A stretch of 64,000 nucleotides of DNA from NCBI GenBank assembly GCA_963695095.1, contig CAVOFT010000001.1:1504001-1568000 (forward strand). The letters are read 5' to 3'. This document shows, piece after piece, positions 5,924 through 23,162 of the stretch. The stretch is from an uncultured bacterium (GTDB taxonomy: Bacteria; Krumholzibacteriota; Krumholzibacteriia; JACNKJ01). The translations under genes and the position numbers were made by a program. Under the pieces are notes generated by a model that saw nothing but the letters and a program-made list of their open reading frames with translations, was not told the origin of the DNA and searched no databases. Every line of letters starts with the position of its first letter. Positions within the stretch are counted from its first letter, which is position 1.

Positions 5924-8005
5924 TTATTTCACGAGCAGCATCTTGCGCGTCGCGCTGCCGTCGGCGGTCACGAGGCGGTAGAAGTAGACGCCCGAGCCCA
6001 CGGACTTGCCCGCGGCGTCGCGGCCGTCCCACTCGACCTCGTTGTCACCGGCGGCGAAGTCGCCGTCGGCGAGGACAGCCAGCCGGCGGCCGGCGACGTC
6101 GAAGACGCTAAGCGTCGCCTGGCCCGCGGCGGGCAGCGTGAAGCGGATCGTCGTCTTCGGGTTGAAGGGGTTGGGGCTGTTCTGCGCCAAGAGCAAACCG
6201 GCGGCCGGCGTGCCGCCCTCGCCGCCCGGCACCGCCGTCAGGTCCTCGACGATGTTGTGGTGCGCGAACTTCTGCGTGAAGACCGCCGCATGCGGCTGGC
6301 CGGGCTGCAGGGCCTGGGCCGCCGCGATCGTGGCGTAGGCCAGATCGCGCATCTTGGGCCCGAAGCCGATGCCGAAGTGGGACTCGAGCACGATCTGATC
6401 CACGCTGTCGCGCGTCTGGCCGTGGGTGCCGACCAGGGTGATCAGGCTCTGGAAGAGCGGCGTCGACCACAGCTCGTCGCTCTGGCCGCCGGGGATGCTC
6501 TGGTGGGCGCCGTAGGTGGTGCTGTGCACGTAGACCAGGTTCAGCTTGTTCATCAAGCGGCCGGACCAGCACAGGTTGCCCGTGCCGTGGCCGTCCCAGG
6601 AGAAGATCCACTCCGGGTGGTAGATGGCGCCGTTGGGCGTGCTGTAGCTGTAGGAGCCCGCCCAGTAGTCGCCGAAGCCCTCGCCGATGCCGCCCGTGTC
6701 GCCGCCGCTCCAGTTGCTGTTGATGCTGTAGTGGATGGCGTGGCCGTACTCGTGCAGCATGACGTCGCTGTCCTCGCTGTCGTCCACGCAGCCGTGGCCG
6801 AAGGACATGCGATTCGTACCGGAGGTGTAGTAGGAGTTGTCGGCGCCGTTGACGCCGTCGGTGTCGGTGCCGATCGAGCCCTCCTGGATGCCGGTGGCGC
6901 CGGTGAAGCCGAGCGCCTGCATGTAGCGCTGGTTCTGGTCGATCATGAAGTAGGTCATCGCGTCATTGAAGGCGTTGTTGCCGCGCGTGGCCGTCCAGTT
7001 GCCGTCGACCGTCGTGCTGGGCGCCGTTGCCGGCGGATCCCAGTTGATGATGTTCACCCAGGGGCCGGTCACGCGATAGAGGCCGCCGCTGAGGGTGATG
7101 TCATTCAAAGTGCGCGTGAAGTAGGCGGCCGTGAAGCTGGAGGCCGGGCTGCCGTCCTGCAGGCCGTCGTTCATCAGCGTGGCGCGAGGGTCGGGATCGA
7201 AGACGACGCCCGATCCGGTGGCGCGGCTGCCGCCCGCGGGGGCGCTCTCCAGCGTGGCGCGGGCCGCGAAGCGGGCGAAGGCCGCGGCGCGGTCGCCGGC
7301 CGGCCCGGCCAGGGCGCCGATGCGCTCGGCGGGCGTGGCCGTCGTGAAGTCGTCCGCCACGCGATAGAGGCGGCTGTCCGCGATGCCGAGCAGCTCGCCG
7401 CTGATGGCGTCCACCGTGAGCGCCCAGTGGCCGTAGGGTTCGGCGACCTCGAGCGCGAGCTGCCAGACGAGCCGGGGATGGCCGTCCGCCGCCTGCCAGA
7501 GCAGCGTCGCGCCGGGCGCGCTGAGCAGCTCGCCGCGCGCCCGCAGGGTCTGCCAGACGATCTCGTAAGCGGCCTCGCTGTCCAGGTGGGCGGTCGCGTC
7601 GGGCCGCTCGCTCAGGGGGTAGTAGTTGTTGTAGCTCTGGTAGACGCGGCCGTCCGCCTTGGCGATGGAGACGATCACCTCGCCGTGCTCGACGGCGAGG
7701 CCGGCCAGACGCTGCGCGAAGTGGTAGTGCGTGCCCAGCAGGCTCTCCTGGACGCTGGCCAGCTCGAGGTCGGTTAGATCCGTGGCGAGGCGGAAGCTCG
7801 CCACGCGGTCGGCGAGGAAGGCGCGGGCCAGCGCCTCGCCGGCCAGGTCGCCGGGCTGGCTCCAGGCGGGCTCGATCTGCAGCCGCGGCGTGCCGCGCCA
7901 GTCGTCGTGCCGAGTGTCGGGGAGCGTGCCGGCGGCCATGGCGGCCGCCGGCAAGACGACGGCGAGCAGGCAGAGCGCGAGGAGGCGGTGCGGGTTGCGC
8001 AGCAT
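5924..8005 (-). CDS. Secreted M36 (fungalysin)/M4-like zinc metalloprotease with propeptide and C-terminal T9SS-CTD/FlgD-Ig-like domain
   Basis: Signal peptide from ATG 8005 with GGAG SD; HEYGH then GEGFGD; C-terminal QNSPNPFNP...WDGRD...SGVYFYRL...KMLLVK. Confidence 0.82.
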   Translation of the reverse strand: MLRNPHRLLALCLLAVVLPAAAMAAGTLPDTRHDDWRGTPRLQIEPAWSQPGDLAGEALARAFLADRVASFRLATDLTDLELASVQESLLGTHYHFAQRLAGLAVEHGEVIVSIAKADGRVYQSYNNYYPLSERPDATAHLDSEAAYEIVWQTLRARGELLSAPGATLLWQAADGHPRLVWQLALEVAEPYGHWALTVDAISGELLGIADSRLYRVADDFTTATPAERIGALAGPAGDRAAAFARFAARATLESAPAGGSRATGSGVVFDPDPRATLMNDGLQDGSPASSFTAAYFTRTLNDITLSGGLYRVTGPWVNIINWDPPATAPSTTVDGNWTATRGNNAFNDAMTYFMIDQNQRYMQALGFTGATGIQEGSIGTDTDGVNGADNSYYTSGTNRMSFGHGCVDDSEDSDVMLHEYGHAIHYSINSNWSGGDTGGIGEGFGDYWAGSYSYSTPNGAIYHPEWIFSWDGHGTGNLCWSGRLMNKLNLVYVHSTTYGAHQSIPGGQSDELWSTPLFQSLITLVGTHGQTRDSVDQIVLESHFGIGFGPKMRDLAYATIAAAQALQPGQPHAAVFTQKFAHHNIVEDLTAVPGGEGGTPAAGLLLAQNSPNPFNPKTTIRFTLPAAGQATLSVFDVAGRRLAVLADGDFAAGDNEVEWDGRDAAGKSVGSGVYFYRLVTADGSATRKMLLVK

Positions 8006-8227: not shown

Positions 8228-11083
8228 ATGCTGTCTTCGGCGCCCCGGCCGCTTCGGGCGGCCCTCATCGTCCTCGCTCTGCTCAGCCTGGCCGGGCCCC
8301 TGCCCCAGGCAGCCTTCGCGCAGGCCGACGGCGCCACGCTGACCGGCGTCCTCCTCGATGCCGCTACCGGCAAGCCGCTCGCCTACGGCAACATCGTCCT
8401 GCTCGGCACGCAGTTCGGCGGCATGAGCCTGGACGACGGCACCTTCCTCATCACCCAGATCCCGCCCGGCACCTACACGGTGCGCGCCAGCTACATGGGC
8501 TACAGGATGGCCGAGCGCACGCTGGTGCGGCTGCGCAACGGCACCGTGCTCGAGATCGAGTTCGACCTCGAGCCGACGGTGATCCAGACCGAGAAGATCA
8601 CCGTCTTCGGCGAGAAACCCCTGGTGGACGTGACCGAGGCCAGCAGCACCAAGAACCTGGCGGCCGACGAGATCGGCAAGATGCCGGTGGAGACGGTGGA
8701 AGAGGTGGTGGTCACCCAGCCCGGCGTGGTCAAGCAGGACGATGAGTTGCACATCCGCGGCGGCCGCGCGGACGAGACCCTGGTGCTCGTCGACGGCGTG
8801 CCGATGAAGGACGCGCTCGCCGGCACGAGCAGCGCCAAGGGCATCGACTCCAAGTCGGTTTCCAACCTGGACCTGATCACCGGCGGCTGGCGGGCCGAGT
8901 ACGGCGACGCCATGGCGGGCGTGATCAACGTCACGCTCAAGGAGGGCGGCGAGACCTTCAGCGGCTTCGCCGAGTACGGCATCGACCACTTGCCGGGCGT
9001 GGTCACGGACTGGGAGCACTATTACACCGACACCTACAAGTTCCAGCTCAGCGGCCCGCTGCCGGGCAGCGGCACCTGGTTTCCCGGCGAGCGGCTGAGC
9101 TTCTTCGCCAACTTCGCCGGCGAGCTGCTCGACACGCGCTATCCCAACATCCGCGACATGCCGGGCGGCGGCCGCAACCTGAACACCCGCTACGAGGACA
9201 GCTTCCTCGGCCTGCCGATCATCTGGCAGAGCGGCAGCGCGGCGCCCCGACAGAACAACGAGTGGAATCTGACGGGCAAGTTCGCCTGGAAGCTGAATCG
9301 CGACCACAAGCTCAGCCTGACGATGACCAAGTACCTGGCCATGGACCAGGGCTTCGACCGCCACGACATCAGCGACCTCACGCGCGAGAGCAACAAGTAC
9401 CCCTACCAGTGGTCGCAGTACCTGGATCACTACAGTGCCTTCGTCGAGGACCGCAACACGGCCGTGCTCAACTACCGGCAGAACTTCGCCGGCAACATGT
9501 TCCAGGAGCTGCAGCTTTCCCGCTTCTTCGTGCGCATCCGCCAGAATTCGCAGCTGCCGGAGCAGGCGGACCTGCGCGACTACCTCGCCCAGTACGCGCC
9601 GCAGGTCTACGACTGGCCGGACCCGGCCCAGGGCGACGACTGGCGCTTCCATCCCTACTTCTACCTGAACGGGGACTACAACCAGTACCGCGACCGCTAC
9701 GTCGAGCGCTGGACGGGCAAGTGGGCGCTGACGAAGAAGTGGTATCCGCATCACCAGGGCAAGGTGGGCCTGGGCGTCGACTACGAGACGATCCAGAACA
9801 TCGAAATCCGCGACCCCTGGATCCAGCGCGCCGACGGACTCGGCCGCAAGGACATCTTCCGCGCTCATCCGACCAAGGCCGAGCTCTATGTCCAGGACGA
9901 CATCGAGTACAAGGGCTTCGTCGCCAACGTCGGGATGCGCTCGGACTTCTGGTTTCCCGGCCAGATGGCCGAGCGCGCGGCCCAGGCGGCCATCGACGGC
10001 ACGGCGGGGGATCTGTTCAGCGCCGAGGTCGGTGAGCAGTACTTCGCCGAGACCCAGTCCTTCTTCGGCAATCGCTACAAGTACACGGTGAGCCCGCGGG
10101 TGGCCGTCAGCTATCCGGTCAGCGAACGGGACAACCTCTTCTTCAACTACGGCCACTTCAGCCAGTGGCCCACCTACTACTACGTCTACACCCACGTCGC
10201 CAGCGGCGTGGAGGACCTCTTCGGCAATCTGGGCAACATCAACCTGGATCCGCAGATCACCATCCAGTACGAGCTGGGCGCGCGGCGCACCTTTCGCGAC
10301 GGCCTCGCGGGCGACGTGACGGTGTTCGTCAAGGACATCTTCAACTACCCGACCAGCGAGCGCTTCACGGTGCAGTACTACGATCCGGTGGAGGGCAGCA
10401 AGGAGGCCACCTACTTCCTCTACCGCAACAGCGACTACTCCCGCAGCCGCGGCGTCGAGCTCTCCCTGCGCAAGCGGCGGGGCCGCTACCTCTCCGGTTC
10501 GCTGAACTACACCTACTCCATCGCCACCGGGCGCAGCAGCGACCCCAATGCGCAGCGCGAGCAATACATCGGCGGCGCCACCGGCGAGGTCGAGCTGGGC
10601 GAGGGCTTCCTCTGGTGGAACCGGCCGCACAGCGTCAGCGCCACCTTCGACTACCGCGTGGATGAGCACCGCGGCCCGCGACTCCTCGGCCTGCCGCTGC
10701 CCGGCCACTGGGGCATCAACGGCTACTACAGCCTCTCCAGCGGTCGCGCCTACACCAAGCAGGATCTCTCGGGCCAGCCGATCAGCGAGGACTACGCGCA
10801 CAACGGACCGATCGAGCAGAATCTCAATCTGAAGCTGCAGAAGTGGGTGCTCTGGGGGAACTACCGGATCGATTTCACGCTGCAGGGGTGGAACGTCTTC
10901 AACTGGAACCAGCCGCGCAGCGTCGATCCCATGACCGGCGAGCCTTACCGGGACGGCGCCGGCAGCTACCTCAACCCGCCCACGGATCCCGATGCGCGCC
11001 TGGCCCGCTACCTGTCGCTGGCCGATCCCTCGCGCCTGGGCGCGCCGCGCCGCTTCAAGTTCAGCATGGGGGTGAACTTCTGA
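8228..11083 (+). CDS. TonB-dependent outer-membrane receptor with N-terminal carboxypeptidase-regulatory-like domain
   Basis: Signal peptide; DGTFLITQIPPGTYTVRASYMGY; plug motifs HIRGGRADE and TGGWRAEYGDAMAGVIN; SPRVAVSYP, FFNYGHFSQ; C-terminal Phe. Confidence 0.9.
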   Translation: MLSSAPRPLRAALIVLALLSLAGPLPQAAFAQADGATLTGVLLDAATGKPLAYGNIVLLGTQFGGMSLDDGTFLITQIPPGTYTVRASYMGYRMAERTLVRLRNGTVLEIEFDLEPTVIQTEKITVFGEKPLVDVTEASSTKNLAADEIGKMPVETVEEVVVTQPGVVKQDDELHIRGGRADETLVLVDGVPMKDALAGTSSAKGIDSKSVSNLDLITGGWRAEYGDAMAGVINVTLKEGGETFSGFAEYGIDHLPGVVTDWEHYYTDTYKFQLSGPLPGSGTWFPGERLSFFANFAGELLDTRYPNIRDMPGGGRNLNTRYEDSFLGLPIIWQSGSAAPRQNNEWNLTGKFAWKLNRDHKLSLTMTKYLAMDQGFDRHDISDLTRESNKYPYQWSQYLDHYSAFVEDRNTAVLNYRQNFAGNMFQELQLSRFFVRIRQNSQLPEQADLRDYLAQYAPQVYDWPDPAQGDDWRFHPYFYLNGDYNQYRDRYVERWTGKWALTKKWYPHHQGKVGLGVDYETIQNIEIRDPWIQRADGLGRKDIFRAHPTKAELYVQDDIEYKGFVANVGMRSDFWFPGQMAERAAQAAIDGTAGDLFSAEVGEQYFAETQSFFGNRYKYTVSPRVAVSYPVSERDNLFFNYGHFSQWPTYYYVYTHVASGVEDLFGNLGNINLDPQITIQYELGARRTFRDGLAGDVTVFVKDIFNYPTSERFTVQYYDPVEGSKEATYFLYRNSDYSRSRGVELSLRKRRGRYLSGSLNYTYSIATGRSSDPNAQREQYIGGATGEVELGEGFLWWNRPHSVSATFDYRVDEHRGPRLLGLPLPGHWGINGYYSLSSGRAYTKQDLSGQPISEDYAHNGPIEQNLNLKLQKWVLWGNYRIDFTLQGWNVFNWNQPRSVDPMTGEPYRDGAGSYLNPPTDPDARLARYLSLADPSRLGAPRRFKFSMGVNF

Positions 11084-12072
11084 TGCGCCGCGCGCTCGTC
11101 GCCCTCTGCCTGCTCGCCCTCGCCGCCGGCTCCGCGCCGGCCGTGCAGGAGCTGGGCGGCCTGCGCGTGGCAACCAGCAGCGGCACCTTCCTGAAGATCG
11201 ACATCAGCCCGCGGGCCGCGGCCATGGGCGGCGCCTGGGTGGCCGTCGCCAGCGACGCCACGGCGGTCTGGTACAACCCCGCCGGTCTGGGCCAGCTGCC
11301 CCATCGGCAGTTCTTCGCCAGCTACGTGGCCTGGCCGGCGGACATCCACTACGCCAATGCGCTCCTCAGCCTGCCGCAGCCGCTGCTCCGCGGCAACGTC
11401 GCCTTCCAGATCGGCAGCCTGAGCACGAGCATCGACGAGACGGACGAGTACCACCCCTACGGCACCGGGCGCAGCTTCCGCTTCAGCGACCTGGTGCTCG
11501 GCGCCGCCTACGCGCGCCCGATGACCGATCAGCTCTACCTCGGCGTGGCGCTCAAGTACGTCCGCGAGGATCTCGGCTCGGCCATCGGCGGGCCGGTGAC
11601 CAACGCCTGGACCGTCGACGTGGGCACGCTCTACCACATTCCCTACCTCAACACGCGCATCGGCATGGCCATCACCAACTTCGGGCCCGAGTTCAAGCCG
11701 GCGGGCAGCTACTGGAACCACAGCGAGGAGAAGAGCGAGGAGTACGAGGGCTTCCCGCCGCCCTCGACCTTCAAGCTGGGCCTGGCCTTCGAGCCCTGGA
11801 AGCGCTATCCGTGGCTGCTCACGCAGAGCCTCGAGATGAACCACCTGGCCGACAACCAGGAGACCCTGGCCACGGGCTTCGAGCTGAGCTACCTCGGCGG
11901 CCTGCTTGCGCTGCGCTCGGGCTACAACTTCATGGCCGACGAGATGGGGATCGCCGCCGGCTTCGGCGCCAACTTCATGCTCAGCGGCGCCATGGCCGGG
12001 CTCGACTACGCCTTCACCGACGGCAACAGCCTGGGCGGCATCCACCGCTGGGCGATCCGGGTGGACTTCTGA
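11083..12072 (+). CDS. PorV/PorQ-family (FadL-like) outer-membrane beta-barrel
   Basis: FLKIDISPRAAAMGGAWVAVASDATAVWYNPAGL signature; C-terminal IRVDF; TGATG coupling to TBDR. Confidence 0.82.
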   Translation: MRRALVALCLLALAAGSAPAVQELGGLRVATSSGTFLKIDISPRAAAMGGAWVAVASDATAVWYNPAGLGQLPHRQFFASYVAWPADIHYANALLSLPQPLLRGNVAFQIGSLSTSIDETDEYHPYGTGRSFRFSDLVLGAAYARPMTDQLYLGVALKYVREDLGSAIGGPVTNAWTVDVGTLYHIPYLNTRIGMAITNFGPEFKPAGSYWNHSEEKSEEYEGFPPPSTFKLGLAFEPWKRYPWLLTQSLEMNHLADNQETLATGFELSYLGGLLALRSGYNFMADEMGIAAGFGANFMLSGAMAGLDYAFTDGNSLGGIHRWAIRVDF

Positions 12073-13025
12073 TGCGCGCTCGCTCACTGCTGTCTCTGCT
12101 CGCGGCGGCCATCGTGGCCGGGGCCTGCGGCATCAAGCCCGAGCTGCCCAGCCAGATCCCGAGCACGGAGGTGCTGGGCGACGAGAGCTACGAGGTCGCC
12201 TACCGCTGGCTCGTCACCGGCGTCACCGACATGCTCGTGCATCGCAGCACGAGCATCTTCTACGTGATCCAGGACGCCGAGAGCCTCTCGATCTACCCGA
12301 CCTACAAGCGCGAAGACCTGGTGACGCCCAACCACAAGCGCATCTTCAAGGGGCTGACGGCTCCGCGGCTGCTGGCCGACGGCAGCGACCACGACTTCCG
12401 CATCTGGGTCTACGACGCGGCCGACGACCGCGTGAAGGGCTACGACGGCGGCGAGTTTCTCGACACGCTGACCGTGCAGGTGAGCTTCACCGACCCCGCC
12501 TGGCAGCAGGTGATCGCCCTGGCCGCCGATGACGCCGGGCGCGTCTTCGTCGCCGACCGCGGCCTCAATCGCATCTATCGCTACCGCGTCGGGGGCACGG
12601 CGGCCAGCCCCACGGTCAGCGCCGACGGCCAGCTCAGCTGGACCAGCCAGGCCGGCGGCGCCACGGTGCGCGACATCGCGATCGCCGCGGGCCGGCTCTA
12701 CCTGCTCGACGACGGGCTGCACACGATCCAGGCGCTGGACCCGGCCACCGGCCCCCTCAACCCGCCGCTCTTCGCCTACTTCGACGAGCTGCTGGACGAT
12801 CCGGTCGCGATCACGGCCGCGGCCGAGCACCTGTTCGTCATCAACCGGGCGGACACCACCGTCTGGGAGCTGTCAGCCCAGCTGGATCCGGAGGGCCAGC
12901 TGCGCGTCAACACGCACACCAAGGAAATCCTGCGCGCGCCGGCGGCCCTGACCGTGGTGGCCGGGCGCGTCTACGTGGCCGATCCGGAGCTGGGGAAGAT
13001 CATCGACTATGAAAAGCGCCAGTAA
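12072..13025 (+). CDS. Lipoprotein, NHL-like beta-propeller
   Basis: Lipobox AGA-C; repeats DDAGRVFVADRGLNRI, GRLYLLD, GRVYVAD; TGATG coupling. Confidence 0.65.
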   Translation: MRARSLLSLLAAAIVAGACGIKPELPSQIPSTEVLGDESYEVAYRWLVTGVTDMLVHRSTSIFYVIQDAESLSIYPTYKREDLVTPNHKRIFKGLTAPRLLADGSDHDFRIWVYDAADDRVKGYDGGEFLDTLTVQVSFTDPAWQQVIALAADDAGRVFVADRGLNRIYRYRVGGTAASPTVSADGQLSWTSQAGGATVRDIAIAAGRLYLLDDGLHTIQALDPATGPLNPPLFAYFDELLDDPVAITAAAEHLFVINRADTTVWELSAQLDPEGQLRVNTHTKEILRAPAALTVVAGRVYVADPELGKIIDYEKRQ

Positions 13026-15291
13026 GCCGCGCCTGCCGCGCCGGTCCGCCCGCCGCTCGGCGGTGGCGGGCCTCGCCGCCCTGCTCGCCCTGAGCCTGAG
13101 CGGCGCGGCGCCGGAGCCCCATGCGCCCCCGGTGCCCCTCTTGCCCGCGGAGCCCGGGCCCTTCTGGGCGCGCCTGGACGAAACGCTCCTGCTCGACTAC
13201 GTCTTCAAGACGCAGAACGCGGGCAACCTGGCCCTGACCATCACGAACCACGGCTTCTTCGGCAACAACTTCGCCGAGCGGGCCGCCTCGATGGAGTACC
13301 CCAAGGGCTCCGAGGTGGACCACATGATCCGCGGCGGCCTCTGGGTCGGCGGCATCAACACCGACTTCGACACCCTGGTGACGACCGGCGTGCAGGACGG
13401 CTACTGGGGCACCTATACGCGGCCGACGGAGTGGGTGCCGGTTTCGATTCCGCCGGCCGAGCAGGCGCTGGGCTGGATTCGCGAGCGCAGCACGCTGCCG
13501 ACGAGTCCCTACTACGATCCCCTCGGCGCGATCAGCGAGCAGGACCTGGTCACGGCCTTCCTCGACACCCTGGATCACCAGCACACGCCCGAGACCGGCA
13601 ACGCCGACAACTGGCACAGCGCGAGCGGGCTCGTCGTCACGCAGGAGAGCTACGCCTGGAGCTACGAGCCCGCCGACGCCATGGTTCTCGTCAAGTGGAC
13701 GGTGGTGCCCACGCGCACGCTCTTGAACGCTCTCTTCGGCGTCTACGCGGAGATGACCACGGGCTGGAAGGGGAAGTACCCCCTGGGCACCTGGCCGCCG
13801 GCCAGCGCCAACTGGTTCTACCACCACAACGTCTACTGGCTGGACGACATGCCCGAGTACGCGGGCCTGAGCGAAGACCCCTACAACCTGATGGCCGAGC
13901 ACCACTGGACCTATGACGAGGGCCGCGCGCCCCAGCATGCCGGCATCAAGTTCCTGGGCGCCAAGTACAAGCCCGGCGGCGGCGAGTGGACGCAGGAGGT
14001 CGGCCGCGTCGCCTGGCGCTGGTGGGACTGGGAGCCGGGCAGCTACGCCCGCGACAACGACGACGAGAAGTACGCGGTGCTCAGCGAGGACGGCTTCGAC
14101 GACTGGACCGAGATCACGCCGAGTCCCGACACCTCCGGGGACAGCCCCGTCGAGCTGCTGAACGTCGGGCCCTGGGACCTCTTCCCGGGCGGGGGCGGCC
14201 AGGAGCCGGACAGCCTCGTGCTTGCCTTCGCCTTCCTGGCCGGCGACAACTTCGCGGATCTGGTGGACAACGCCCTCTACGCGCAGAAGGTCTACAGCTT
14301 CAACTTCACGGTGCCGACGCCGCCCTATTCGCCGCGCATCAAGGTGGCCACGGATGCCGGCCGCATCCAGATCCGCTGGGGCGACGGCCCCGAGCGCAGC
14401 GTGGACGCGGTGACACGCGACTACGACTTCGAGGGCTATCGCGTCTACGTCGGCCGCGGCCCCGAGGCGGGCAGCTTCGATCTGCTCACCCAGGTCGACC
14501 TGGCCGAGATCCCGGCCAAGAACCCCCTCTTTGACAGCTACTTCACGCAGGGCTGGCTGGAGGCGGCCGTCGCCCCCGAGCCACTGGACGCGGACAATGG
14601 CCAGGCCGCGCTCGATGCGCTCTGGCCGGACGCCTACAGCTTCCACTTCGGCGCCCGGGAACCCTTCCTGGTCACCGAGCCCGACTCGGTGGGCTACAAC
14701 ACGGGCTTGAGCCGGGTGCTGCTGCCCGAGGCGGAGTGGGAATACGAGGCCGCCGGCGCCGATACGATCGTCTACAAGTACGGCAGCACGCTGGCCCCGG
14801 TGAAGGATGGCCACCACTACTGGGTTGCGGTCACCAGCTACGACCTCGGCAATCCCGAGACGCCCAGCCTCGAGAGCGGCGTCGGCCAGAACCTGCTGCA
14901 CGTGGTGCCCGGCCGCAGCCCGGCGCAGGCGGCCGGACGCGGCGTCACGGTCTTCCCCAATCCCTACCGGGGCAGCGCCGTCTGGGACGCCAATCCCGCC
15001 ACCGGCCGCTACATCTGGTTTGCGGGCTTGCCGGCCCGCGCCCTGATCAAGATCTTCACCCTGGCGGGGGACCGCGTCGCCGAGATCGACTTCGACCGCG
15101 CCGAGTACCGCGGCGAGAATGCCGCCGGCCTGCTGGTAGGAGGCGAAGCGCCCCAGCTCTCGGGCACCATGGCCGCCTGGGACCTGCGCAGCGAGAGCGG
15201 CCAGCCGGTGGCCACGGGACTCTACCTCTATTCCGTCACCGACCGCGCGAGCGGCGAATCGCAGCAGGGCAAGTTCCTGATCCTGAAATGA
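13009..15291 (+). CDS. Large secreted protein of unknown function with PNPY-type T9SS-CTD-like C-terminus
   Basis: Hydrophobic N-terminus; EYPKGS...GGLWVGG; DFEGYRVY; YWVAVTSYD; VFPNPY...WDLRSESGQPVATGLYLY...GKFLILK; exact start uncertain. Confidence 0.75.
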   Translation: MKSASKPRLPRRSARRSAVAGLAALLALSLSGAAPEPHAPPVPLLPAEPGPFWARLDETLLLDYVFKTQNAGNLALTITNHGFFGNNFAERAASMEYPKGSEVDHMIRGGLWVGGINTDFDTLVTTGVQDGYWGTYTRPTEWVPVSIPPAEQALGWIRERSTLPTSPYYDPLGAISEQDLVTAFLDTLDHQHTPETGNADNWHSASGLVVTQESYAWSYEPADAMVLVKWTVVPTRTLLNALFGVYAEMTTGWKGKYPLGTWPPASANWFYHHNVYWLDDMPEYAGLSEDPYNLMAEHHWTYDEGRAPQHAGIKFLGAKYKPGGGEWTQEVGRVAWRWWDWEPGSYARDNDDEKYAVLSEDGFDDWTEITPSPDTSGDSPVELLNVGPWDLFPGGGGQEPDSLVLAFAFLAGDNFADLVDNALYAQKVYSFNFTVPTPPYSPRIKVATDAGRIQIRWGDGPERSVDAVTRDYDFEGYRVYVGRGPEAGSFDLLTQVDLAEIPAKNPLFDSYFTQGWLEAAVAPEPLDADNGQAALDALWPDAYSFHFGAREPFLVTEPDSVGYNTGLSRVLLPEAEWEYEAAGADTIVYKYGSTLAPVKDGHHYWVAVTSYDLGNPETPSLESGVGQNLLHVVPGRSPAQAAGRGVTVFPNPYRGSAVWDANPATGRYIWFAGLPARALIKIFTLAGDRVAEIDFDRAEYRGENAAGLLVGGEAPQLSGTMAAWDLRSESGQPVATGLYLYSVTDRASGESQQGKFLILK

Positions 15292-16877
15292 GCACACCTT
15301 ACCGGGACCTTCGACCTGCCACTCCGTGCCGTCGGGCACTGGCCGCCCTTTGCGTGCTGGCGGCTCTCGGGCTAGGCGCCTGCGACGAGCAGCAGTCGCT
15401 CCTGCCCAACCAGCCGCCGCAGACCTTCCTGTCGGTGGAAGGCGGCGAGCTGGCGCCCACGCACTACCGGCAGATCCTGAGCTGGCACGGCGAGGATGTC
15501 GACGGCGAGGTGGTCCGCTTCGAGATCCAGTGGCGGCTGGACCCCGCCACGCCGCCCGTGGCCTTCGATACGACCTGGGTGGGCCTGACCCCGCCCTACC
15601 TCACGGCCACGCGCGACACCTTCTTCCTGCCCGTGCCCACGGCCGGCGCCGACACGCTCGTCCATCGCTTCCGCGTGCGGGCCGTGGACAATCAGGGGCT
15701 CGGCGATCCCGAGCCGGCGGAGCAGGCAGTGCCCGTCTTCAACCGCGCGCCGCGCCTCTGGGCCGTGACGAGCGCGGGAGACACGACGAGCACGCTCAGC
15801 CTGCCGGCCAGCATCCTGCCCGTGCTCACGATCCGCTTCAAGGTGGGGGATCCGGACAACCCGGCGACGGACCCCGAGGAGGCGCTGGCCTACATCGAGT
15901 CGGTGCGCTTCTGGTTCGAGGATCCGGATGCCGCCATCACCGTGGCCGGCACCGACACCCTGATCAGTCTCGTCCCGGCGGACTTCGGCCAGCTCGTGGG
16001 CGTCCAGCGCGAATTCCACCTGCAGGCCCGGGATCTGGGCGGGGCCCTGAGCAACGTGCTCACGGCCACGGCCTTCGTGCGGGACATCCGCCAGGCCCGG
16101 GTGCTGCTGATGGACGGTGCCGGGCAGGCCAGCCCCCAGAACCTGACCGTGGTCGACCCCTTCTGGCACGACCGGTTCACGGGCCTCTTCGCGCCGCAGG
16201 AGGTGCTCCTGCACGAGATCGCCGCCAGCGGGCCGATCGGGGCGCCGGAGAACCTGCACGCCATCTTCTCCCTCTTCGAGCTCGTCGTATGGTATAATGG
16301 GACGGATGGCGCGCCGCTCGCCTTCACGAACCCGCCCAGCCTCAACCTGCGCGCGGCCGAAGCCGGCTTGCGCGTGTACCTGGAAGGGGGAGGCAAGGTC
16401 TTGCTCGAGGGCTACAACCTGGTCGGAGCCAGCCGTGGCGCCTACTCCGGAGGCAGCTTCAGCGTCGACTTCGAGCAGGAGGTGCTCAAGGCCGACAGCC
16501 TGCAGGCCCACAACACGAGCACCGGCGGGGTGATGACCTCGAACTTCTGGGTCTTCGGACCCAAGCAGTTCCAGGGTTTCGCGACTGCCGGCACAGCGGC
16601 GCTCGGCCTTGCCGCTGGTGTCCAGCTCAAGGGCATCGATCGCCTGGCCTTGAATCCGGAGGCGCTCTCCACGGGAATCGTGGCAGAGCTCTATCGTGTG
16701 ACCGGCGACCAGACCTACCCGCCGAGCCTCTTCGCGGGGGCCGTGGGGGTCAGGCGCCATTTCGAGTCGGGCGGTCAGCTCGTGCTGCTGACCTTCCCGA
16801 TCAGCCTGACCTGGAGCAACGACAACGTGCTCGATCAGGTCCGGGGATTCTGCGAGGAATTCGGCGTCCTGCCCTAG
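15288..16877 (+). CDS. Lipoprotein with Ig/FN3-like N-terminal region and alpha/beta C-terminal domain
   Basis: Lipobox LGA-C; NQPPQT, WHGEDVDG, FRVRAVDNQG; VVWYNG...YLEGGGKVLL; ATGA overlap. Confidence 0.7.
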   Translation: MSTPYRDLRPATPCRRALAALCVLAALGLGACDEQQSLLPNQPPQTFLSVEGGELAPTHYRQILSWHGEDVDGEVVRFEIQWRLDPATPPVAFDTTWVGLTPPYLTATRDTFFLPVPTAGADTLVHRFRVRAVDNQGLGDPEPAEQAVPVFNRAPRLWAVTSAGDTTSTLSLPASILPVLTIRFKVGDPDNPATDPEEALAYIESVRFWFEDPDAAITVAGTDTLISLVPADFGQLVGVQREFHLQARDLGGALSNVLTATAFVRDIRQARVLLMDGAGQASPQNLTVVDPFWHDRFTGLFAPQEVLLHEIAASGPIGAPENLHAIFSLFELVVWYNGTDGAPLAFTNPPSLNLRAAEAGLRVYLEGGGKVLLEGYNLVGASRGAYSGGSFSVDFEQEVLKADSLQAHNTSTGGVMTSNFWVFGPKQFQGFATAGTAALGLAAGVQLKGIDRLALNPEALSTGIVAELYRVTGDQTYPPSLFAGAVGVRRHFESGGQLVLLTFPISLTWSNDNVLDQVRGFCEEFGVLP

Positions 16878-16953: not shown

Positions 16954-18879
16954 ATGAAGAGCAGAGTTCTATTCCTGGTCGCGGCCGCGCTGAGTCTGGC
17001 AGCGGTCGCCTCGGCCCAGCCCATCGTCACGATCTACGATCTGCAGACGGATCTGATCGCCGACAACACCGTGGTCACGGTCGAGGGCAAGGTCGTCACC
17101 GCCGTCGATGACATCCCCTCCGGGATGGGCTTCTTCATCCAGGAGCCGGCCGGCGGCCCGAATAGCGGCCTTTACGTGTTCGTGGGCACGGTGAACGTGC
17201 CGACCGTGATCATCGGCGACGTCGTCGACGTCACCGGTCTCTATGACGACTACTTTCCCGCCGGCGCCCCCGGCACCGGTCTCGCGGAGCTGAATCTCTC
17301 CGTGCCGCACGGCGGCCAGGGCAGCTACACCGTGGTCGGCAGCGGCCAGGTGCCCCAGCCCGTGCTCCTGCGCGCCTGGCAGACCCGGACCGCCAATCCG
17401 CTCGAGGCGGAGAAGTGGGAATCCGTGCTCGTCCGCCATGAGAGCGTGGCCAAGATCGCCACCGATCCCGGCTTCGGCGAGTGGTTCGGAGCGGAGTTCG
17501 GCTTCGCGGTCAACGACACCACCCGCTTCGACGACGGCCTGGGCACCTCCGGCCCGCCGGTGGGCACGCAGATGAGCTCGGTCACGGGCGTCCTCAACTT
17601 CACCTTCAACGACTTCAAGGTGACGCCCCGCGGCCAGTATGACATCGTCTACGTCGGCGCGGCGCCGGCCCCCAGCCTGCTCTGGGCGGCGGCCACCGGT
17701 GAGTCCAGCATCGACGTGCGCTTCGATCGGCCGGTGGAGGAGACCTCGGCCGAGAATTCGGGCAACTACTTCCTCGATCTGGGCGCCGTGAGCACGGCCA
17801 CCCTCGATCCGGGCGATCCCGAACTCGTCCACCTGGCGCTCGCCAGCCCGATGCTGACGGAAGTCCTGCTCACGCTCACGGTCATCGACGTGCAGAACAC
17901 GGACGGCGTGGCCATGGCGCCTGAAGCGACGCAGTTCTGGGGCGGCATCAATACCGTCGCCTTCTCGCAGTACCCGGATGCCGGCGGCGACTCCTCCGCC
18001 GTGGCTGGACAGATCGTCACCGTCAGGGGCGTCATCCACAGCAAGTACGATGTCTGGGGCAACCACGTCTACCTGCAGGAAGTCAACGGGGCGGCCGGGG
18101 CGCGCACGCCCTACAACGGCCTCGAGGTCTACCTGCCCGCCTACCTGCCGCAGCTCGCCGTGGGCGACATCGTCATCATCGCCGACGCGCAGACCGAGTA
18201 CTTCAACATGACCTCCTTCGTGCAGCCCTTCTACTACTTCGAGAAGGTGTCCAGCGGCAATCCGGTGCTCGCGCCCGAGGTGATCACCATCGGCGACATG
18301 AGCGACCCGAGCGTCTGGGAGCCCTACGAGGGCGCGCTGGTCCGCGTGGAGAACGTGACGGTGGTGGAGCGCGCGGGCGCCTGGAACTTCTACGACTGGA
18401 GCGTTACCCAGGACGACCTCAACTGGCTCAAGATCGGCGACATGGGCGACTACAGCTATCTCGAGGGCCTGGGCGACGAGCTCAACATCACGGGCACGCT
18501 GCGCTACGAGTTCGGCAACTTCGTGCTGATGCCGCGCAGCGACGCCGACATCGAGATCCTCTACCAGAACCCGCTGGGCGCGGACGGCCTGCCCGCGGGC
18601 GCCAGGATCGCGCTGGCGCAGAACCACCCGAATCCCTTCAACCCGAGCACGAAGATCAGCTTCGTCCTCGCCGAGCCCGGCGAGGCGCGCCTGGAGATCT
18701 TCGACACGGCCGGCCGTCTGGTGCAGACCCTCGCCGCGGGCCAGCTCGCGGCGGGCGGCCACGAGTTCGTCTGGGGCGGTGCGTCAGCCGCCGGCGGCCA
18801 GGCTCCCAGCGGCCTGTACTACTATCGGCTGAGCGCCAACGGCGAGAGCCAGACGCGCAAGATGCTGATGCTCAAGTAA
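16954..18879 (+). CDS. Secreted protein with duplicated OB-fold-like modules, Ig-like domain and T9SS-CTD/FlgD-Ig-like domain
   Basis: Signal peptide; TIYDLQ..VTVEG..GFFIQE..SGLYVF and VTVRGVI..YLQE..NGLEVY; EKWESVLVR and EPYEGALVR; QNHPNPFNP CTD. Confidence 0.75.
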   Translation: MKSRVLFLVAAALSLAAVASAQPIVTIYDLQTDLIADNTVVTVEGKVVTAVDDIPSGMGFFIQEPAGGPNSGLYVFVGTVNVPTVIIGDVVDVTGLYDDYFPAGAPGTGLAELNLSVPHGGQGSYTVVGSGQVPQPVLLRAWQTRTANPLEAEKWESVLVRHESVAKIATDPGFGEWFGAEFGFAVNDTTRFDDGLGTSGPPVGTQMSSVTGVLNFTFNDFKVTPRGQYDIVYVGAAPAPSLLWAAATGESSIDVRFDRPVEETSAENSGNYFLDLGAVSTATLDPGDPELVHLALASPMLTEVLLTLTVIDVQNTDGVAMAPEATQFWGGINTVAFSQYPDAGGDSSAVAGQIVTVRGVIHSKYDVWGNHVYLQEVNGAAGARTPYNGLEVYLPAYLPQLAVGDIVIIADAQTEYFNMTSFVQPFYYFEKVSSGNPVLAPEVITIGDMSDPSVWEPYEGALVRVENVTVVERAGAWNFYDWSVTQDDLNWLKIGDMGDYSYLEGLGDELNITGTLRYEFGNFVLMPRSDADIEILYQNPLGADGLPAGARIALAQNHPNPFNPSTKISFVLAEPGEARLEIFDTAGRLVQTLAAGQLAAGGHEFVWGGASAAGGQAPSGLYYYRLSANGESQTRKMLMLK

Positions 18880-18952: not shown

Positions 18953-18987
18953 GAGCCCGGCGGCTTCCGCGCCGGGCTCTGTTGTTC
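18953..18987 (+). terminator. Putative intrinsic terminator
   Basis: GAGCCCGGCG / CGCCGGGCTC 10-bp stem followed by TGTTGTT. Confidence 0.55.
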
Positions 18988-22325: not shown

Positions 22326-23162
22326 ATGCACCAGCTCTACATCAGCCTGCCGCTCACCCAGTACCGCCGCTACGAGGCGGAGCTGTCCGTTCTGCCCGCG
22401 GGGCTCGAGATCCTCATCGACGAGGCCGCCCTCGCCCCGGCCTTCGCCGGCGAGCGCGCCGCCATCGCCGCGGCCCTGCGCGCCCAGGGCCGCCCCTGCC
22501 GCTTCCACGCCCCCTTCCGCGACCTCGCGCCCGGCGGGCAGGACAGCGAGGCTGTCCAGCTGGCCCGGCGGCGCCTGGGGGCGGCCATCGACCTCGCCCC
22601 CGACTTTGGCGTCACGGCGATGACCGCCCATCCCGGCTGGGATCCCCAGGGCAGCGGCACCGCCGAGGAGCGAGCGGGCTGGCTCGAGCGGAGCATCGCC
22701 TTCTGGTCGGCGCTGGGGGAGCGGGCCGCGGCGCGCGGCCTGCGCATCGACCTGGAGAACATCTTCGATCGCGATCCCGGCGCCCTCGGCGCGCTGCTCG
22801 CCGCCCTGCCCGCCGACCGCTTCGCCTGGCTCCTGGATCTCGGCCACTGGCACGCCTTCAGCTTCGCGCCCTTGAGCGAGTGGCTGGCCGCCCTCGGCCC
22901 CCGCCTGAGCAGCCTGCACCTGCACGACAACGGTGGCGCCTCGGATGACCACCGGGCCCTCGGCGCGGGCAGCCTGCCGCGGCGGGAGGCCCTGGCGGCA
23001 CTGCGGGGCCTGGCGCGGCCCCTGGACTGGGTGCTGGAGAACCGCAGCGCGGCGGATATCGCCACGAGCGTCCGCCATCTCGCCCAGGAATCAGGCATCG
23101 CTGAATTCGAGGGCCTCGCGGGGGCGGGGGAAAGGGCGGCGCCGCCCCCGCAGCGCCCTTGA
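22326..23162 (+). CDS. Xylose isomerase-like TIM barrel (sugar phosphate isomerase/epimerase family)
   Basis: HAPF, HPG, LEN, LDLGH, HLHDN..DDH..LGAG, LE metal-ligand pattern. Confidence 0.85.
   Translation: MHQLYISLPLTQYRRYEAELSVLPAGLEILIDEAALAPAFAGERAAIAAALRAQGRPCRFHAPFRDLAPGGQDSEAVQLARRRLGAAIDLAPDFGVTAMTAHPGWDPQGSGTAEERAGWLERSIAFWSALGERAAARGLRIDLENIFDRDPGALGALLAALPADRFAWLLDLGHWHAFSFAPLSEWLAALGPRLSSLHLHDNGGASDDHRALGAGSLPRREALAALRGLARPLDWVLENRSAADIATSVRHLAQESGIAEFEGLAGAGERAAPPPQRP

Follow-up and report, generated by a model that had tools for sequence, protein, structure and literature searches.

A conserved six-gene outer-membrane cassette of uncultured bacteria as a candidate SusD-free importer of nucleic-acid fragments

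Here we describe a cassette of six genes, designated A to F, which is located in a window of 64,000 nucleotides (positions 1,504,001 to 1,568,000 of contig CAVOFT010000001.1, assembly GCA_963695095.1) from the genome of an uncultured member of the Krumholzibacteriota. We propose, with confidence that is evenly balanced, that the cassette encodes a utilisome-like outer-membrane importer, which captures DNA or RNA fragments for nucleoside salvage and operates without a SusD lid. The parts of this reading differ in strength: import through the transporter A is very probable, anchoring of protein D by the barrel B is, by analogy, probable, and a nucleic-acid substrate is somewhat favoured. The cassette comprises the following features (TBDR, TonB-dependent receptor or transporter; T9SS, type IX secretion system; CTD, C-terminal domain):

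8228..11083, + strand: A, TBDR, 951 aa (profile matches)
11083..12072, + strand: B, PorV/PorQ-family barrel private to the cassette, 329 aa (NF033709)
12072..13025, + strand: C, NHL-type beta-propeller lipoprotein (Cys19), 317 aa (PF01436)
13009..15291, + strand: D, predicted beta-supersandwich with FN3-like domain and atypical CTD, unnamed family, 760 aa (AlphaFold)
15288..16877, + strand: E, lipoprotein (Cys32), predicted Ig-Ig-class I GATase-like, 529 aa (predicted fold)
16954..18879, + strand: F, T9SS cargo with two OB-type repeats and a standard type A CTD (profile matches)
18953..18979, + strand: terminator-like hairpin of 10 pairs, 3' of F

A sequence-only reading of this DNA had described A to E as a unit of five genes joined by four overlapping junctions. 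Indeed, all five reading frames are open at these coordinates, with TGATG at the A/B and B/C junctions, a 17-nt overlap at C/D and ATGA at D/E, and the product labels assigned at that time (TBDR, PorV family, propeller, CTD protein, Ig-like lipoprotein) hold up in profile and fold searches. The extent of the unit was drawn too short, as the sixth gene F, which follows E after a gap of 76 nt and carries the main substrate clue, had been left out. Gene overlap is common in the genome of the window (377 of 1432 close same-strand neighbours according to our own gene calls) and the overlaps are therefore weak evidence, suggesting an operon and no more. Likewise, terminator-like sites show no excess in the window, with 3 found and 3.8 expected from shuffled sequences.

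The gene set is conserved. A search of GTDB using A alone returned 267 loci, the best 80 of which were analysed with our own profiles for the partners. In these 80 loci, B was detected beside A in 76 cases, C in 74, D in 59, E in 70 and F in 58. All six genes were present in 33 of 33 loci of the A subfamily that extend at least 8.5 kb to both sides, in the order ABCDEF in 21 loci (Krumholzibacteriota, Eisenbacteria and unclassified records) and DFEABC in 12 loci (Marinimicrobia, KSB1 and unclassified records). By inspection, 27 of 28 incomplete loci stop where the missing genes would sit, the remaining one, L103, being ambiguous. In a sister family from the phylum of the window (f4), the order is DEABC in 16 of 19 loci and irregular in three, and full-length F is encoded elsewhere in the genome in 20 of 21 f4 genomes. 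Of 61 genomes from the phylum, 36 contain both D and F, 25 contain neither, and none has one without the other; the threshold for this count was set afterwards, and it essentially compares four families with four, plus one genome. Since the gene set is kept while its order changes, at median protein identities of 22–37%, the six genes almost certainly form one functional unit. The neighbourhood survey thereby bears out that the arrangement is conserved, being kept across phyla in the three orders ABCDEF, DFEABC and DEABC.

The substrate was addressed through the neighbouring genes. The fetched loci were scanned by tblastn with one panel of salvage genes, and loci around paralogous TBDRs, taken from genomes that partly overlap with those of the cassette loci, served as controls; these were reduced from 40 to 39, because L193 turned out to be a cassette locus. 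A salvage gene was located near the cassette in 25 of 103 loci, compared with 1 of 39 control loci and ~3% of random stretches of the window genome. The single control match (L188) contains a TBDR without B or D. Within f4, salvage neighbours were detected for 14 of 19 cassette loci and for 0 of 16 paralogous triads, i.e. modules consisting of a TBDR, a D paralogue and a PorV-family gene. In Eisenbacteria-type genomes, a set chosen after some of the neighbours had been seen, the counts were 9 of 14 for the cassette and 0 of 13 for the controls. About four to five separate arrangements of salvage genes can be distinguished. Genes for a deoxynucleoside kinase (dNK), adenosine deaminase (ADA) and purine nucleoside phosphorylase (PNP) directly follow the block in f4, while deoC directly precedes the cassette in L083, L087, L089 and L099, belonging to two named Eisenbacteria and relatives. 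In L093 the upstream genes are deoC, deoB, uridine kinase, thymidine kinase, ADA and PNP, and L097 carries a similar set; L095 is surrounded by PNP and cytidine deaminase genes, and a 5'-nucleotidase gene is adjacent in L085 and L133. Of note, extra cargo genes directly follow the cassette at L093:20763-22811, L097:20817-22826 and L108:15320-22750; the products encoded there include an OB protein with a PHP-type metallohydrolase domain, a helix-hairpin-helix protein, lamin-tail/OB proteins and an additional PorV-like barrel.

A further substrate clue resides in F. The protein passes the T9SS type A CTD model TIGR04183 with 32.2 bits (cut-off 23), which marks it as type A cargo. Its two repeats match positions 1-128 of the ExeM/NucH nuclease model, but not the catalytic part, and the same N-terminal match was obtained for 7 of 7 F orthologues scanned. 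The repeats also match the N-terminus of EEP-domain proteins (PDB 9sf8/9sf9, E 1.7e-8) and that of a PLD-domain T9SS cargo encoded in the window genome (hhalign 99.5%). In addition, weak matches to DUF5689 link F to DdbD and RA0C_RS04920; among 7 further F orthologues, one passes the cut-off of this family (36.1 bits). DdbD, which is predicted to bind DNA as the TBDR partner in a DNA-utilisation locus of B. thetaiotaomicron, belongs to DUF5689 (PMC12478041), as does Riemerella RA0C_RS04920, which is essential for transformation (PMC8459023). Genes of the ExeM type and for endonuclease I were not found in the window genome. A T9SS cargo combining an F-like OB unit with PLD-like domains is encoded at C1:3470095-3472527 (L153) and represents a candidate secreted nuclease.

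D is the subunit for which a role as lid appears most plausible. Its AlphaFold model is confident (pLDDT 87.1), and residues ~61-435 adopt a predicted beta-supersandwich resembling the non-catalytic N-domains of GH15, GH94 and GH116 enzymes (Z 16-19.5; best match Z 19.5, rmsd 3.2 over 257 residues at 7% identity). An FN3-like domain comes next, and the CTD (residues 644-760) superposes on the CTD of PorZ (Z 12.0, rmsd 2.2, 87 residues, 31% identity). Although the last domain superposes in this manner, TIGR04183 gave no match with D, indicating an atypical CTD. The tail of D ends with GKFLILK, and a C-terminus of the form GK/R-F/L-xxx-K/R is present in 58 of 59 D orthologues among those listed, while F orthologues mostly carry a K-K-M-type C-terminus as found in most cargo. 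As the tails differ and D misses the model that F passes, D and F are, judged by sequence, two CTD classes. No Pfam family and no PDB sequence relatives of note were found for D, and its Atlas neighbours are unnamed clusters. Close relatives of D carry the name Candidatus Krumholzibacteriota. The earlier suggestion that D might act as an enzyme was not borne out: the model lacks the (alpha/alpha)6 catalytic barrel of its structural matches, and a glycoside hydrolase was rejected on this ground. The paralogous modules likewise have A, B and D as their constant core. This makes D the best candidate for a lid or scaffold, while C, E and F, as additions of the cassette subfamily, would set the substrate; the D fold, being common to all paralogous triads, names no substrate. 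At C1:3110475-3112934, a D paralogue stands alone, with neither a TBDR nor a PorV gene next to it.

The remaining subunits fit an outer-membrane machine. A matches the TBDR barrel (PF00593, 57.4 bits, cut-off 27) and plug (PF07715, 40.5 bits, cut-off 23.9) models and consists of an N-terminal carboxypeptidase-regulatory-like domain, plug and barrel, ending with a C-terminal Phe; its identity to orthologues outside the family is at most 39%. No match with the SusC/RagA-type model TIGR04056 (cut-off 368) was obtained for A, and an A orthologue scores 55.3 bits; by these profile scores A is not a SusC. B belongs to the PorV/PorQ family (NF033709, 147.4 bits, cut-off 90), but remains under both equivalog cut-offs (NF033710, 46.4 of 250; NF033711, 72.6 of 220), i.e. 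it is neither PorV nor PorQ proper. The sequence-only reading had postulated a dedicated PorV paralogue for the CTD protein, and trees of B and of the D CTD agree with this: comparing 37 cassette rows (every second GTDB locus plus 8 f4 loci) with 39 rows of paralogous modules and other pairs of the genome, 37 of 37 cassette rows fell into one cross-phylum clade in each tree, apart from the paralogous modules (FastTree support 0.79 and 0.85, respectively). Mirror-tree correlations (0.89-0.97 among the six genes, 0.82 for B and the D CTD) were rejected as evidence for contact, as they reflect shared descent. C is an NHL propeller (PF01436, 21 bits, cut-off 20). A lipobox-like motif is present in 61 of 69 C orthologues and 59 of 70 E orthologues, and in 2-3 each for D, F and B.

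E yielded a confident model as well (pLDDT 87.5), in which a pair of Ig-like domains precedes a class I GATase/ThuA-like domain (Z 14.3). In Foldseek, the only listed near-full-length match was chain G of the levan utilisome (523 columns, E 1.1e-7, TM 0.33), which we take to be SGBP(lev) by its length of 435. The surface glycan-binding protein (SGBP) of the levan system has the domain order Ig, Ig, globular binding domain (PMC7618045), and E, as modelled, has this layout of a utilisome surface binding protein. No Pfam family and no PDB sequence relatives of note were found for E; as a lead, Atlas neighbours of its last domain are DUF4960 and GATase-like families.

The genome of the window (70% GC, 3.64 Mb, 93.5% complete) offers the matching context. 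SprA (532.5 bits, cut-off 200) is encoded at C1:2432871-2439296 and PorU (438.4 bits, cut-off 420) at C1:2160287-2164249, with a PorV-family gene directly beside porU, and our own CTD profile detected ~154 CTD-tailed proteins. The SusD models PF07980 and PF12771, both of which match in the B. thetaiotaomicron control, found nothing in this genome at its 93.5% completeness. Neither D, E nor C is SusD, the models of D and E being beta-rich and alpha/beta, respectively, and C being an NHL propeller by Pfam. The sequence-only observation that no SusD-like gene is recognisable was thus confirmed, and neither lipoprotein proved to be a SusD.

We envisage the following mechanism. D and F would cross the outer membrane via SprA by their CTDs. 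PorQ pairs with PorZ, and D, with a CTD of separate class (GKFxxxK), would similarly stay uncleaved on its private barrel B and rest on A, serving as a lid or scaffold without catalytic function in the place of SusD. F, through its OB repeats, and lipoprotein E would bind the polymer, with C as a structural lipoprotein. Nucleases encoded elsewhere, for which the OB, PLD and CTD protein at C1:3470095-3472527 is a candidate, would cut the polymer, and the oligonucleotides would pass through A and feed the salvage enzymes.

Several observations weigh against this reading. No salvage gene of the panel adjoins the cassette in the window genome itself, nor in any of the 8 loci of its family, and in Marinimicrobia/KSB1-type loci such neighbours occur in just 1 of 49; four more of these loci adjoin IMPDH or purine-synthesis genes, which are outside the panel. 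The panel was derived from the cassette loci themselves and related loci are not independent. In f4, F adjoins an unrelated gene, and 5 loci of family f6 carry D and F away from A, B, C and E, which were not searched there. The fold matches of D are all accessory domains of sugar enzymes, the full-length structural match of E is a levan-binding protein, and OB folds bind sugars too. F is acidic (net charge -43) and its match with DUF5689 is weak (14.2 bits, cut-off 28.6; 4 of 15 F sequences at E<=0.05). Profile searches, and the predicted folds of D and E, revealed no nuclease domain in any of A to F. Finally, of the T9SS components looked for following the sequence-only reading, SprA and PorU are present, but searches of the window genome for GldM and GldN gave no match; the same models were silent in the controls too, leaving them without a positive control, and GldK and GldL were not searched.

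Some of these points feed a competing explanation, in which the same architecture handles a glycan or another cell-debris polymer; D would be the lid and E the surface glycan-binding protein of a utilisome that lacks SusD. The supersandwich of D (Z 16-19.5 with GH15, GH94 and GH116) and the alignment of E with levan utilisome chain G agree with it, and so does the position of a paralogous triad beside GH1-, GH94- and LacI-like sequences (labels from sequence reading) and of two control loci near amylase-like genes. However, the scanned neighbour clusters of the 103 cassette loci contain no conserved glycoside hydrolase or other CAZyme, and the D fold is common to all paralogous triads, while F and the salvage neighbours are specific to the cassette subfamily. 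We therefore consider a glycan importer unlikely, albeit the strongest competitor of nucleic-acid import. Less probable still is that the cassette takes up DNA across the outer membrane during natural transformation, comparable to the TBDR and DUF5689 pair of Riemerella. Both R. anatipestifer genes are essential for transformation (PMC8459023), the cassette is single-copy and strictly kept, a helix-hairpin-helix gene lies near one locus (L108), and the window genome encodes ComEC; yet ComEC matches were also obtained in 10 of 14 control genomes and carry little weight, and in the loci scanned the neighbours are catabolic or salvage genes and not comEC, dprA or comF. PorF is TBDR-like, which would allow the cassette to be seen as an accessory of T9SS or envelope assembly without nutrient import, A being PorF-like and B-D a PorQ-PorZ-like pair. 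This we regard as very improbable: the D CTD is nearest to that of PorZ, GldM/GldN were not found, conservation is housekeeping-like and PorF counts among T9SS components (PMC8754138), but 25 of 61 genomes of the phylum lack a D orthologue and F and each contain at least 43 first-look CTD-bearing F-profile candidates, which suggests that CTD cargo persists, a PorU-linked PorV is encoded elsewhere in the genome, and F and the salvage neighbours would be left unexplained.

The cassette can be compared with three known systems. With ddbABCDEF of B. thetaiotaomicron and RA0C_RS04915/04920 of Riemerella it shares the lack of SusD and a TBDR beside a partner, of DUF5689 type in those systems and putatively so in the case of F, that is proposed to bind DNA, and with the former also the number of six genes (PMC12478041, PMC8459023). 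In contrast, ddb contains three nucleases and lipid-anchored partners, whereas the cassette has no nuclease, a private PorV-family barrel and two T9SS-tailed proteins, and its F matches DUF5689 weakly. The ddb Pv2 subtype also lacks a secreted nuclease (PMC12478041). The SusCD-type levan utilisome resembles the cassette in combining a TBDR with surface lipoproteins, E having the Ig-Ig-globular layout of SGBP(lev) (PMC7618045), but the cassette contains neither SusD nor a hydrolase, A is far under the SusC cut-off and the partners are predicted to travel via T9SS. Accordingly, the claim that the arrangement differs from polysaccharide utilisation loci stands as far as the missing SusD, SusC match and conserved CAZymes are concerned, and was overstated in view of the utilisome-like layout of E. 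The third comparison is with PorV-PorU, PorQ-PorZ and PorP/SprF-type B pairs, in which the barrel gene adjoins the gene of a CTD protein of matching CTD class (PMC8754138, PMC12618676). Cognate PorP/SprF shuttles keep type B cargo at the surface (PMC12618676), and an attachment complex is named in both papers (PMC8754138, PMC12618676). The cassette deviates by combining a PorV/PorQ-family barrel with a type A-like CTD and by coupling this pair to a TBDR, and D is a predicted supersandwich, unlike the propellers of PorZ or the protease PorU. Taken together, the cassette would work like a utilisome or ddb locus and fails membership of both.

No published account of the six-gene cassette was found among the literature matches listed, in a search that left subscription journals mostly outside. 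New here are the controlled neighbourhood count, the co-occurrence of D and F, the distinction of two CTD classes, and fold predictions for D and E. If nucleic-acid import is true, a substrate and a mechanism can be named for an outer-membrane operon which ranks among the best conserved of those without annotation in abundant, uncultured FCB (Fibrobacteres-Chlorobi-Bacteroidetes) lineages, TonB-linked DNA utilisation reaches well beyond gut Bacteroidales, and PorV-family barrels serve as permanent anchors for transporter partners, beyond their shuttle role. More tentatively, FCB phyla outside the Bacteroidia (Krumholzibacteriota, Eisenbacteria, Marinimicrobia, KSB1, Calditrichota) may use a third importer plan, in which a private PorV-family barrel locks a T9SS-exported lid to the membrane, the secretion system having SprA and PorU while GldM/N are not recognisable; the six-subunit version might be a harvester of extracellular DNA and thus turn over DNA in sediments and deep water by a route that has gone unrecognised. 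UBA2242 Marinisomatota metagenome-assembled genomes were found in sediment cultures amended with DNA, and no mechanism was assigned to them (PMC8630151).

Regarding the flanks of the cassette in the window, a T9SS-tailed thermolysin/fungalysin-like metallopeptidase is encoded divergently from A (5924-8005, - strand) and adjoins the cassette only in the window genome and a genome of the same genus. Downstream, a PF01261 TIM-barrel gene (22326-23162) follows the cassette in 9 family loci, preceding rplM-rpsI-rpsB.

Elsewhere in the window genome, 11 PorV-family matches at 10 places and 8 TBDR barrels were counted, and two further TBDRs are each accompanied by a D paralogue and a PorV-family gene in a triad. 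The first triad (L151, C1:2390000-2402049; TBDR, D-like and PorV) is followed by a GWxTD-type gene and exbB/exbD/exbD/tonB-like genes, the latter labelled from sequence reading, and is near-universal in the phylum genomes searched; its exbB/exbD/tonB-like set could energise a T9SS without GldM/N. The second (L152, C1:289875-296849) is situated beside GH1-, GH94- and LacI-like genes, labels which again derive from sequence reading. Here, a 1980-aa reading frame fusing TBDR and partner (C1:289875-295817) was considered as a Rosetta stone and rejected, as an off-frame-looking stretch and a second signal peptide point to a likely assembly indel. Moreover, five PorV-family genes (C1:743511, 1822486, 3032453, 2083434 and 1351871) each directly follow the gene of a large CTD-type protein (807-2863 aa), and one of them carries a C-terminal extension, OmpA-like in appearance.

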